Shown: positions 1,689 through 47,974, counted from the stretch's first letter. The stretch is 64,000 bases of DNA from a bacterium (GCA_965207065.1 OZ242260.1:3456001-3520000), one strand, 5' to 3'. Notes: generated from the sequence alone by a model not told the origin. Made by a program: numbers and translations.

Positions 1689-2345
1689 ATGGAAAACGCC
1701 CCTGTGCGGTTCACGGTGTACAGCGATTTTTTGTGACCCTGGTGCTTCAACTCGGCCGTGCGCCTGAAAAAGATTAAAGAAGAATATGGAGATAAAGTCG
1801 ACATTCAGTACAGGGTATTCATGCTGAGGCCCGAGCCGGACCCCACGGCGGTATTCAACGATTACCGTAAAAACCACTGGACGAACGCGGATTCACAGCC
1901 AGATTCCGGCGATTTCACCTTGTGGGAGAGCGAAGAGGAATTCCCGAACTGCTCGATGCCGTCTGCGGAAGCCGGGCTGGCGGCGAGGTTCCAGGGCCCC
2001 GAAGAGTGGGAAAAATTCCACGATAATCTTCTGGCCGCCTTCTTCACGGAAAACAGGAACATCTCGAACCCCGAAGTGGTGAGCGACGTGGCGGAGAAAA
2101 GCGGTCTGGACATGGACAGGTACCGTGACACTCTCGAAAGCGGGGATTTGAAGGAAAAGGCCGTCAAGGAATACATGGAGGCCACGAACCTGGGGATAAC
2201 GGGCATTCCCTCCGTCGTCGTGAACGATCGGGCGGTCATGGTCGGCGCGGTGCCGGCGGAACAATACAAATACGTCATCGACAGCATCCTCGAAACCGGC
2301 GATTTGCCCGGCCGGGCGCCCGACGAACTGCCCGTCTCGGACTAG
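1689..2345 (+). CDS. DsbA/FrnE-family thioredoxin-fold protein, probable selenoprotein (in-frame UGA 1734-1736, motif UPWC)
   Basis: AAGGAG RBS then ATG at 1689 reads MENAPVRFTVYSDFL-TGA-PWCF, in frame with ORF 1758-2345; matches the FrnE YSDxxCPWC motif; downstream GITGIP cis-Pro loop. Confidence 0.85.
1746..1768 (+). promoter_or_regulatory. Putative SECIS-like hairpin downstream of the UGA
   Basis: UUCA/UGAA and GGC/GCC stems close a CGUGC loop; GUG lies at +22 from the UGA, the same as at 47207. Confidence 0.5.
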
Positions 2346-10693: not shown

Positions 10694-10768
10694 GCGGGAA
10701 TAGCTCAGTGGTAGAGCACAACGTTGCCAACGTTGGGGTCGCGGGTTCAAATCCCGTTTCCCGCTCCA
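10694..10768 (+). tRNA. tRNA-Gly (GCC)
   Basis: Acceptor stem GCGGGAA/TTCCCGC, D-arm AGCTCAGTGGTAGAGC, anticodon arm CAACG-TTGCCAA-CGTTG, GGTTCAAATCC T-loop, encoded CCA. Confidence 0.97.
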
Positions 10769-45432: not shown

Positions 45433-46854
45433 ATGAATAATCGCTTCATCCTGTCGATGCTGTTGATGTTGCTCATGGGTACCGCCGCGCCTGCGCAGGC
45501 GAGCCTTGGCATCGACTATATGCGAAAGATCGAGGGGGCGTTCACGCAGATCGCGGAAAGCGTGAAGCCGACGGTGGTAAGCATACGAGCGGAGAGAAAA
45601 AAGGGAACAATCCAGCAGACGCCCCGGTCGCCCCATCCAAACATGCCGCTGTTCTCCTCCGGGTCAGGCGTCATCATCGACCCGGCCGGATATATTCTCA
45701 CGAACAACCACGTGGTCAGTAATACGCGGAGACTGCGCGTGCGCCTTTGGGATGAGTCCGCCCATTGGGCGAAAGTCGTCGGCACGGATCGCTATACCGA
45801 TCTCGCGCTGATCAAAATCAACCCGCACCGCAAGCTGCCGGTGGCGAAGTTCGGGGATTCCGACAAGGTGAAAGTGGGCCAGTGGTCGATAGCCGTGGGT
45901 GATCCTTTCGGCATTACGAGAACGTTCACGGTAGGCGTCGTGAGCGGGATGGGGCGCAGCGGCGTCGGCGTCGCGCGGTATGAGCATTTCATCCAGACGG
46001 ACGCCGCCATCAACCGGGGCAACAGCGGCGGGCCCCTTGTGAATATCGACGGGCAGGTCATCGGCATCAACACGGCGATTCCGGCTCCCGGCAGTGGGCT
46101 CGGGTTCGCCATTCCCGTCAACATGGCGAAAGACGTCATCAAATACCTGAGGAGAAGCGGAAATTTCCCGCGCGGTTATCTAGGCGTGAGCATTCAGCCG
46201 GTGAGTCAGGACATGGCCTACCTGCTGGGGCTCTCCGGAGCGAAAGGCGCGCTCGTGGGTTCTCTGCTGAAAGACGGCCCGGCGGAGGGAGCGGGCATCC
46301 GCATGGGCGACGTGATCGTCCGCCTCGGCGGAACGCGCGTCGTGGATACGGCACATCTCCAGCGTCTCGTGGGCTGGACGCCGCCGGGAGATGCCGTGGC
46401 GGTGGAAGTCGTGCGAAACGCCCAGAGAAAAAAATTCATGGTCAAGCTGGTCCGTCTGCCAGAGCAGGAAACGGCCAACGCAAAGGCGCAGCCGAGCGAA
46501 ATCGATGAACCCGAGACCAGGAAGAATTACGGCGTGGCACTTGAGAACCTGACCGACGAGTTGAAGGAGAAAGGCAAGCTGGAGACGGACGGCGGCGTAT
46601 ACATCAGCGACGTGGAAGAGGGCAGCAGGGCCTATTACGACGGCTTGCGCGAGGGCATGGTGATACGCGGACTGACCTATCGTCTGCCCGGAAACGGGAA
46701 AACGCCCATCCGCGTCTCGATAGAAAAACTCGAAGACGTCGAAGCATTGCTGAAAAAAATTCCCGCGGGCGCGAACGTCCTGGGACAGGTCGTGCGCGGG
46801 ACAGACCGCGGGGAGCGGACTTTCTTTGCCGTCCTCCACGGATTTCGACGCTAG
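45433..46854 (+). CDS. DegP/DegQ (HtrA) serine endoprotease
   Basis: Signal peptide, GSGVII, TNNHVV, DLAL, QTDAAINRGNSGGPL, two PDZ regions. Confidence 0.93.
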   Translation: MNNRFILSMLLMLLMGTAAPAQASLGIDYMRKIEGAFTQIAESVKPTVVSIRAERKKGTIQQTPRSPHPNMPLFSSGSGVIIDPAGYILTNNHVVSNTRRLRVRLWDESAHWAKVVGTDRYTDLALIKINPHRKLPVAKFGDSDKVKVGQWSIAVGDPFGITRTFTVGVVSGMGRSGVGVARYEHFIQTDAAINRGNSGGPLVNIDGQVIGINTAIPAPGSGLGFAIPVNMAKDVIKYLRRSGNFPRGYLGVSIQPVSQDMAYLLGLSGAKGALVGSLLKDGPAEGAGIRMGDVIVRLGGTRVVDTAHLQRLVGWTPPGDAVAVEVVRNAQRKKFMVKLVRLPEQETANAKAQPSEIDEPETRKNYGVALENLTDELKEKGKLETDGGVYISDVEEGSRAYYDGLREGMVIRGLTYRLPGNGKTPIRVSIEKLEDVEALLKKIPAGANVLGQVVRGTDRGERTFFAVLHGFRR

Positions 46855-46891: not shown

Positions 46892-47974
46892 ATGCCTCAG
46901 ATGAGAAGCATTCTTGTCGCCTTACTGGTCCTTGCCTTTCCGGTTCTCTCGGGCGCGAGCCCTGAAACCGAGATTCGCACACTGCTGCCGAAAGACGGCA
47001 TACCCGCCATCGATGCGCCGGAATACGCGAGCGTGAAAGACGCCAAGAGGTTCATGCAGCCGGACGAGATGGTGATCGGCATCAACATCAAGGGGGAGAA
47101 GCGGGCCTATTCCGTCCCCCTGCTCAGCTCGCACGAGATCGTGAACGACGTGGTGGGCGGGAGCGCCGTCTCCGTCACCTGGTGACCGCTCTGCTATTCG
47201 GCCATCGTGTATGACCGGAACATGGACGGGGAAAAACTCAGCTTCGGCGTTTCGGGAAAACTCTGGAAGAACGTGCTCATCATGTACGACCGCCAGACGG
47301 ATACGCTCTGGAGCCATCTGACGGGAGAGGGCCTCATCGGCCCGCTCAAGGGCAAGCGCCTGAAGACGTTCCCCGCCGCCATGATGCGCTATTCCGAATG
47401 GACGCAGCTCTATCCTGATACCCTGGTGCTGAAGAAGAAGTTGAAGGGCATGGGGGGCATGTTCCGCAGCTCCTCCCGGGACCCGTATGAGGGGTATTAC
47501 TACAGTTCGCAGACGGGCGTGATCCCCGAGAAATACCGCGACAATCGCCTGCACCCGAAAACCCTGCTGGTGGCCCTTGCGCTCGATTCCCCGAAAGAGA
47601 AAGGGGAGCAAGTATCCAAGGTGTATCCCTTCGCGGATTTGAACCGCGCGGGCGTCGTGAACGACCGCTTCGCCGGCCGGGACGTTCTGGTCACCTACTG
47701 CGAGGGGGCGGGTACGGGGGTCGTTTTCGACCGCGTCCTGAAGGGCAAGACGCTGGAGTTCGAACTCATTGCGAGCGAGGGCGCCAAAGGCGCCGCCGCC
47801 TGCCGGTTCATGAAGGACAAGAAGACCGGTTCGCGCTGGCAGCGCCTGACAGGCATGGCCGTCGATGGGCCGATGAAGGGCGCCAAGTTGAACCAGCTAT
47901 CCACGACGCTCGCGTTCTGGTTCGGCTGGAAGGATTATTATCCAAAGAGCGAGATATACCGCCACCCGAAATAA
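46892..47974 (+). CDS. Exported DUF3179-family protein, probable selenoprotein (in-frame UGA 47183-47185, motif UPLC)
   Basis: ORFs 46826-47185 and 47207-47974 share a frame; join reads KDGIPAID...HEIVNDVVGG.AVSVTW-TGA-PLCYS...FGVSGKL...MYDRQTDTLWS, matching the DUF3179 VTYCPLC motif; GAGGAG RBS and signal peptide. Confidence 0.87.
47197..47219 (+). promoter_or_regulatory. Putative SECIS-like hairpin downstream of the UGA
   Basis: UUCGG/CCGGA and CAU/AUG stems close a CGUGU loop; GUG at +22 from the UGA. Confidence 0.55.

Follow-up and report, generated by a model that had tools for sequence, protein, structure and literature searches.

Two selenocysteine codons of one bacterium precede near-identical apical RNA loops, most probably by coincidence

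Background

In bacteria, a UGA codon that is read as selenocysteine (Sec) needs a SECIS element directly downstream. The element of the Escherichia coli gene fdhF has G23 and U24 in its loop (counted from the U of UGA) and a bulged U17, and SelB binds it through its C-terminal winged-helix domain. The window that we analyzed, which is the whole stretch of 64,000 nucleotides of a bacterial genome (GCA_965207065.1 OZ242260.1:3456001-3520000), hosts two unrelated genes that are each interrupted by an in-frame UGA. An earlier note on this DNA observed that both UGAs are followed at the same distance by a GUG, which can be drawn in a loop of five nucleotides in both genes. It proposed that C-GUG-Y at exactly +21 to +25 after the UGA is a lineage-specific SECIS consensus, which could be used to mine the whole selenoproteome. 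The two sites therefore raise the question of whether their likeness reflects a rule of this bacterium. In the following, we refer to the site in the DUF3179 gene as site A and to that in the DsbA-like gene as site B. Positions are counted from the first letter of the window and positions with a plus sign from the UGA (Table 1).

Table 1. Coordinates of the two genes, their UGA codons and the hairpins that follow them
Feature	Position	Strand	Description
DUF3179 selenoprotein gene	46892..47974	+	360 aa; likely signal peptide; motif W-U-P-L-C, U98
Sec-encoding UGA, DUF3179 gene	47183..47185	+	in frame; coding potential on both sides
Core of probable SECIS hairpin, site A	47199..47217 (+14..+32)	+	CGG-C-CAU [CGUGU] AUG-A-CCG
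Apical loop CGUGU, site A	47206..47210	+	G at +22, U at +23
DsbA-like selenoprotein gene	1689..2345	+	218 aa; motif L-U-P-W-C, U16
Sec-encoding UGA, DsbA-like gene	1734..1736	+	in frame; conserved; Pfam domain across
Probable minimal SECIS hairpin, site B	1752..1767 (+16..+31)	+	UC-GGC [CGUGC] GCC-(bulged U)-GA
Apical loop CGUGC, site B	1757..1761	+	G at +22, U at +23

Evidence that both UGA codons encode selenocysteine

The genome consists of one contig of 4.48 Mb with 59.5% G+C. It contains a tRNA-SeC (690478-690574), selB (386 bits, compared to a curated cut-off of 242) and SelD, which is itself a Sec-containing protein. With the TGA translated as U, Pfam domains span the TGA of both genes: PF11376 in the DUF3179 gene (E 6e-91) and PF01323 in the DsbA-like gene (E 2.9e-23). 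For the DUF3179 gene, we chose the ATG at 46892 as the start, although the TTG at 46826 is open too. Its one in-frame TGA is kept in 22 of 22 genomes of the same genus as well as in other genera of the family, and at the aligned position class-level homologues of about 40% identity carry Cys (F-C-P-L-C). The in-frame TGA of the DsbA-like gene is conserved out to class-level relatives, which share 44-50% identity. Taken together, the machinery, the domains and the conservation across genomes show that the UGAs at 47183 and 1734 are genuine Sec codons, in agreement with the earlier note.

Both DUF3179 (PF11376, motif UxxC/T) and DsbA-like form 1 (PF01323, motif UxxC) appear among the selenoprotein families in Table 1 of the 2026 review PMC13188914. 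In the DUF3179 gene the PF11376 domain is present, U is the first position of UxxC/T and homologues carry Cys, while the DsbA-like gene combines the PF01323 domain with the UxxC motif. The Pfam families and the UxxC motif are the same as in the table of the review, with no notable difference. The two genes are thus further members of the DUF3179 and DsbA-like selenoproteins, and represent a known mechanism in known families.

More distant groups of DUF3179 paralogs also have an in-frame TGA (loci L138-L140 in genomes G029, G023 and G040, with motifs Y-U-T-L-C and T-U-E-R-C). Their hairpins, as read by eye, have GGG or GGGUCUG loops at approximately +10 to +17, unlike site A. In the sequences compared, the use of Sec looks widespread within the DUF3179 family, and the SECIS elements look unrelated between groups of paralogs.

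The selenocysteine genes of the genome

We looked for TGAs that are flanked on both sides by coding signal in their own frame, relying on a frame-specific Markov coding model that was trained on the genome and retrained iteratively until 98% of the frames were correct. Two previous versions had been dropped, namely a codon-usage model that separated coding from non-coding sequence poorly, and a first Markov model built on all long ORFs, which was contaminated by shadow ORFs and returned only 63% of correct frames. Strict filters retained 112 TGAs and relaxed filters 27 more, for a total of 139. Sixty of these, picked by visual inspection because of a redox-like motif or a high score, were scanned against Pfam with the TGA translated as U.

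In 39 of the 60 candidates, a domain extends across the TGA and belongs to families of the kinds known for selenoproteins: 13 CMD/AhpD-like, 8 AhpC-TSA/Redoxin, 5 OsmC, 4 DsbA, 3 UGSC, 2 rhodanese, 2 glutaredoxin, and one each of thioredoxin, DsrE, GrdA, PF04273 (phosphatase-like) and DUF3179. Four more candidates are GrdB-like, with the Pfam model stopping just before the TGA, and one is SelD. The resulting set of 44 Sec genes (39 + 4 + 1) is a lower bound and a biased sample, as it was hand-picked in part. Two other candidates also have a domain across the TGA and were held apart from the set, a CoA-transferase and an MMPL protein. The remaining 14 were rejected (L013, L017, L025, L026, L035, L045, L049, L051-L056 and L060), mostly because they have domains on separate sides of the TGA, as expected of adjacent genes, and otherwise because no family was found.

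The MMPL-family TGA (locus L050, G000:C1:767115, + strand) was left out since no SECIS-like hairpin follows it. An MMPL/RND-type transporter domain does lie across this TGA (E 3e-6), and a pseudogene, a pair of genes or a sequencing error could explain the locus. Three Sec genes were added later, namely a fourth UGSC gene, a second PF04273 gene and the CoA-transferase, which extended the set to 47. The genome therefore has at least 47 Sec-recoded genes, and its selenoproteome is almost entirely of the thiol-redox type. It is also devoid of Sec formate dehydrogenase, which PMC13188914 calls the most widespread bacterial selenoprotein: none of the 11 PF00384 matches in the genome contains a stop. 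Similarly, PF02662 (FlpD/MvhD) has no match in the genome.

Among the Sec genes of the set, C-GUG-Y is confined to the two sites

The GUG does lie at +22 to +24 after both UGAs, as the note had it. At site A the TGA is followed by ...UUCGGCCAUCGUGUAUGACCGGA..., with the GUG at 47207-47209, and at site B by ...UUCAACUCGGCCGUGCGCCUGAA..., with the GUG at 1758-1760. In both genes this triplet is the in-frame codon +8 and encodes Val. The ORF list also begins at this GTG in the two genes (47207..47974 and 1758..2345), which is a mechanical effect because the first start codon after a stop is taken.

To be a rule of this lineage, the motif should recur in other Sec genes of the same genome. Instead, only 2 of the 44 have GTG at +22 to +24 and only 2 of the 44 have CGTGY at +21 to +25, and in both cases these are sites A and B. 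The other 42 genes, including three of the DsbA family, all lack CGTGY at these positions, which is the very observation that the note had named as speaking against its consensus. Extending the set to 47 genes leaves two with CGTGY and adds one to those with GTG, a UGSC gene whose loop AGUGU lies at +19 to +23.

We compared these frequencies with those in the rest of the genome. After in-frame Cys codons, GTG occupies codon +8 in 319 out of 9,747 cases (3.3%) and CGTGY starts at +21 in 47 (0.48%). CGTGY is found at +21 after 3 of 1,293 true TGA stops, and after 135 of 132,637 TGAs when all those on both strands are considered. At the coding background rate, two or more GTGs in 44 genes correspond to the chance level (P = 0.42). 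For CGTGY, the comparison of 2 out of 44 with the background of 0.48% returns a nominal P of 0.019, which is a circular result, as it was from these very genes that the pattern had been derived. Sharing of this kind is not rare: 7.8% of 200,000 random pairs of post-Cys sequences have a 4-mer in common at the same offset within +15 to +30, and so do 81 out of 848 pairs of Sec genes from different families.

The motif also performs poorly as a mining tool. Among the 135 matches to TGA-N20-CGTGY in the genome, none but the two known sites is a confirmed Sec codon. Three more matches have coding signal on both sides; one of them resembles a stop codon ahead of a ribosome-binding site and an ATG, and a redox motif is absent from the other two. 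The C-GUG-Y identity of the two loops is a coincidence and not a rule of this bacterium. A motif of five nucleotides at fixed spacing cannot mine the selenoproteome of this organism, and a tempting false shortcut is thereby removed.

What the Sec genes have in common

The bSECIS model of Zhang and Gladyshev (2005), as summarised in the legend of Fig. 2 of PMC13188914, is composed of a loop of 3-9 nt and an upper stem of 4-16 bp, with a G in the first two loop positions that is usually followed by G or U. It further limits the spacing between UGA and loop to 16-37 nt and the minimum free energy (MFE) to -7.5 kcal/mol or lower. The same 2026 review states that some bSECIS elements do not fit the model. 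A search with Rfam at the gathering threshold over the whole window returned no SECIS family, the sole match being a tRNA at 10694-10765 (+).

For each UGA, we enumerated the hairpins of the following 55 nt with a procedure of our own, which allows for at most one to two interruptions per stem. Most of the hairpins at Sec sites have energies between -8 and -15 kcal/mol, and their loops are of the G-first type: GGUC in eight genes (AhpD-like, at +22 to +25), GUA in five, GGC in four, AGGU(A) in three, and GGG, GUU and others in the rest. A hairpin of -7 kcal/mol or lower, with the loop starting at +15 to +26 and a G in its first two positions, follows 36 of the 44 Sec codons, compared to 391 of 1,500 Cys codons, 135 of 457 CxxC sites and 186 of 1,200 true TGA stops. 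When the published bSECIS constraints are applied in our own implementation, 38 of the 44 Sec sites pass, and so do 305 of 1,000 Cys codons and 215 of 1,000 true stops. The published rule is enriched at Sec sites and yet far from specific, as 22-31% of the control sites pass. Of the 38 Sec genes that follow the published model, 36 have a loop that begins 16-25 nt downstream of the UGA, and the spacing is therefore a window rather than a fixed point. The feature that the Sec genes have in common is the published bSECIS model, with its small G-first apical loop. Beyond this, the sequences of the 44 hairpins are too dissimilar for a common structure to be carried by a MAFFT alignment.

A family-level loop is present elsewhere in the genome. 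At least 8 of the 13 CMD/AhpD-like Sec paralogs have the same GGUC tetraloop at +22 to +25, on stems of 5-8 bp that differ in sequence (for example L004, L015, L021, L032-L034 and L058). This tetraloop is a SECIS signature of the AhpD-like genes at the level of the family, which a search for shared loops would find here.

The hairpin at site B

All 37 distinct orthologue rows of the DsbA-like gene can form a hairpin with G22-U23 in a loop of 4-5 nt, although this count, like the other counts of orthologue rows reported here, overstates independence because orthologues are related. Three registers are used. In 28 rows, GGC [CGUGC] GCC is followed by the bulged U29 and by two to three more pairs; in six, the register is shifted by one to GCC [GUNC] GGC and the bulged U is retained; in the last three, a continuous stem of 7 bp carries a GUUC loop. 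The switch between registers tracks correlated synonymous changes at +18 and +27 (UCG...CGC vs UCC or UCA...CGG). Synonymous diversity is lowered at codons +6 to +12, where it ranges from 0.00 to 0.32, compared to roughly 0.3-0.7 in most flanking codons. Covariation is not significant at site B, with changes on both sides of one pair only, in three related rows.

The note had combined a loop of 5 nt with a stem of 3 bp and an irregularity, and this arrangement is possible at both sites. Its outer and lower stems did not hold. At site B, the pairs C17-G30 and U16-A31 form a better lower stem than UUCA/UGAA with a 4-nt bulge, as originally drawn for 1746-1768. The local hairpin has an energy of -3.6 to -3.9 kcal/mol (-3.9 for the fold of the note), and site B is no more stable than shuffled sequence (z = +0.1 to +0.9). 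The small hairpin corresponds neither to the MFE structure of RNAfold nor to the consensus of RNAalifold, and the folds that the two programs prefer are different and equally weak. Folding programs consequently back the note at site A, as described below, and favor other folds at site B.

It is on these grounds that another fold might be the working SECIS of site B, with the CGUGC hairpin being incidental. The best example is GGUGC (+5 to +9) paired with GCGCC (+24 to +28) around a loop of 14 nt, which is both the MFE and the centroid structure of RNAfold at -7.0 kcal/mol, whereas the small hairpin does not appear in the RNAalifold output at all. We regard this possibility as unlikely. In nine divergent rows of the alignment, as we read it, the 5-bp stem is broken by G at +27 and in some by U at +24, and the same nine rows keep a local hairpin around G22-U23 with energies of -5.9 to -10.8 kcal/mol. 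Moreover, a loop of 14 nt is outside the published range of 3-9 nt (PMC13188914, Fig. 2 legend). The comparison of orthologues thus favors the small G22-U23 hairpin of site B, which is probably a real SECIS element, with thinner evidence than at site A.

The hairpin at site A

The hairpin drawn by the note at site A (47197-47219) is both the MFE and the centroid structure of a stretch of 40 nt, with an energy of -5.8 kcal/mol (RNAfold), and its core is the RNAalifold consensus of the DUF3179 orthologues. The two outer pairs of this version are not maintained across orthologues. As at site B, the hairpin is no more stable than shuffled sequence (z = +1.0). The loop CGUGU is identical in 33 of 34 orthologue rows, and all six core pairs can form in 32 of the 34. 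At both sites, G22 and U23 open a conserved Val codon, and their constancy alone is therefore inseparable from protein constraint.

More informative are the synonymous sites around it. In 33 orthologous sequences, which reach down to approximately 57-68% protein identity, codons +5 to +10 (ACG, GCC, ATC, GTG, TAT and GAC; nt +13 to +30) have zero synonymous diversity. All 21 other degenerate codons with n >= 25 do vary synonymously (for example CCG/CCC/CCA, CTC/CTT, CGG/CGT/CGC/CGA, and TAT/TAC at the Tyr codon +4). The probability that six invariant codons are contiguous among 27 by chance is approximately 7e-5, and the invariant block from +14 to +32 coincides with the extent of the core hairpin. 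No significant covariation is detectable in the alignment of DUF3179 orthologues, since the pairs hardly ever vary.

Other pairings are conceivable in this region. A longer irregular stem reaches -12.4 kcal/mol in 58 nt, and it is not conserved in all orthologues. A competing hairpin, in which CGUGU would be part of the stem rather than the loop, pairs UAUACG (+10 to +15) with CGUGUA (+21 to +26) around the loop GCCAU. This loop begins with G, and the hairpin can form in 21 of the 34 rows; when the MFE is computed for each row, 14 contain the favored hairpin, 9 the competitor and 11 neither of the two. That the competitor is the working element seems very improbable to us. It has a U-U mismatch in the sequence of the window itself, its 5' arm varies at +10 to +13, and its loop follows the UGA at a distance of 15 nt, slightly short of the published spacing of 16-37 nt (PMC13188914, Fig. 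2 legend). It would also leave the conservation of +27 to +32 unexplained, while the invariant block from +14 to +32 fits the favored hairpin exactly. From the pattern of conservation, the hairpin with the CGUGU loop is probably a real SECIS element.

Two weak, probable examples of an ordinary element

Sites A and B are among the six of the 44 Sec sites that fail the published bSECIS constraints. They agree with the model in loop size (5 nt, CGUGU and CGUGC), in the position of the G (second in the loop, with U next) and in spacing (20 nt each). The discrepancy is in the upper stem, which has 3 uninterrupted bp, ended by a 1x1 mismatch at site A and by a bulged U at site B, and which reaches the required 4-16 bp only if interruptions are allowed, and in the energy of the local hairpins, which is -5.8 kcal/mol at site A and -3.6 to -3.9 kcal/mol at site B instead of -7.5 kcal/mol or lower. 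Because of these short stems and weak energies, a scan with the thresholds of the model would miss both sites. They are unusually weak examples of SECIS, which lie below the published search thresholds. Like the elements described by the bSECIS model in PMC13188914, they are hairpins in coding sequence, just 3' of the Sec UGA.

We consider it most probable that the two hairpins are the apical parts of ordinary bacterial SECIS elements in known selenoprotein families, and that the identity of their loops is coincidental. One could argue instead for a distinct minimal subclass of SECIS, composed of a C-GUG-Y pentaloop on a 3-bp stem with an irregularity, with G-U fixed at +22/+23 and read efficiently by SelB. 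The presence of both sites among the six that fail the thresholds would fit such a subclass, and so would the mismatch or bulge that follows 3 bp of upper stem in both, their strong conservation at the nucleotide level, and the statement of PMC13188914 that some bSECIS elements do not fit the model. If it were true, SECIS-based tools would undercount selenoproteomes. The subclass is nevertheless quite improbable, since it has two examples only, whose stems share no common sequence, since the other four failing Sec sites have no such loop, and since DsbA-like relatives use tetraloops in a shifted register.

It is even less probable that neither site has a functional RNA structure and that protein constraint and codon preference account for the conservation. 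The amino acids of both stretches are conserved, the energies of the hairpins are no better than those of shuffles, and GCC, ATC, GTG and GAC may be codons that a genome with 59.5% G+C would favor. Against this, the six contiguous codons without synonymous change include TAT, whereas the Tyr codon at +4 varies between TAT and TAC, and the codons that flank the invariant DUF3179 block vary freely. Homologues with Cys in place of Sec do vary at the matching third positions, in 5 + 6 distant sequences only. In addition, a Sec UGA in bacteria requires a SECIS directly downstream.

The idea with which the analysis started, that SelB of this organism reads C-GUG-Y at exactly +21 to +25 as a lineage consensus usable for mining, retains next to no probability, because the other Sec genes of the same genome lack the motif, and what favors it is limited to its presence in two unrelated genes and to a nominal enrichment defined on the same two, while deeper orthologues of the DsbA-like gene itself carry GUUC or GUGC tetraloops instead.

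For the ordinary elements that we favor, the E. coli fdhF SECIS provides an analogy. As in fdhF, sites A and B present G-U in a small apical loop that lies some 20 nt downstream of the UGA and have an irregularity by the short upper stem (the 1x1 mismatch in A and the bulged U in B). They differ from fdhF in that G-U lies at +22/+23 after the UGA rather than at +20/+21, that the bulge of site B is on the 3' side, and that both stems are much shorter. As in the established bacterial system, SelB carrying Sec-tRNA(Sec) would bind the small loop that presents G-U, and the UGA in the ribosomal A site would then be read as selenocysteine and not as a stop. We infer both the binding of SelB and the exact stem that it uses, above all at site B; the selB and tRNA-Sec genes of the genome and the conservation of the nucleotides support the binding indirectly. 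Conserved and apparently functional SECIS elements can sit well below the usual thresholds of stem and energy, and for this reason homology-based searches, which rely on Sec/Cys pairs, are safer in such genomes.

Other loci with an in-frame TGA

Three Sec genes outside the window belong to the CoA-transferase and PF04273 families. The CoA-transferase gene (PF01144; L042, G000:C1:3021315-3022055, - strand) has an in-frame TGA at 3021707 with the domain across it. This TGA is shared by 20 of 22 genomes of the same genus (G016 and G018 gave no match to the query used) and by three other genera. In the closest paralog of this genome, the aligned residue is Cys (EHA-C-S vs EHA-U-A), and a strong SECIS-like hairpin lies downstream (-16.6 kcal/mol, 9-bp stem, GGC loop, spacing of 23). 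Neither 'CoA transferase' nor 'PF01144' occurs in the 2026 selenoproteome review PMC13188914, and the gene may represent an uncatalogued selenoprotein family.

The other two are the paralogous PF04273 genes (phosphatase-like, DUF442-type), located at G000:C1:1354407-1354856 (+ strand, L014) and G000:C1:4140402-4140842 (- strand). In both, U replaces the catalytic Cys of the H-C-x5-R loop (H-U-K-A-T-G-R and H-U-K-G-V-G-R), and the TGA is retained throughout the genus as well as in three further genera. The terms 'PF04273' and 'phosphatase' are not found in PMC13188914.

Two of the rejected candidates, L013 (G000:C1:2343154-2343846, + strand) and L017 (3195938-3196630, - strand), are closely similar to each other. 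In both, an ORF ends in TGA and TraL (PF07178) follows in frame, which makes them false positives of the Sec scan and suggests that the genome hosts two copies of a conjugative transfer region.
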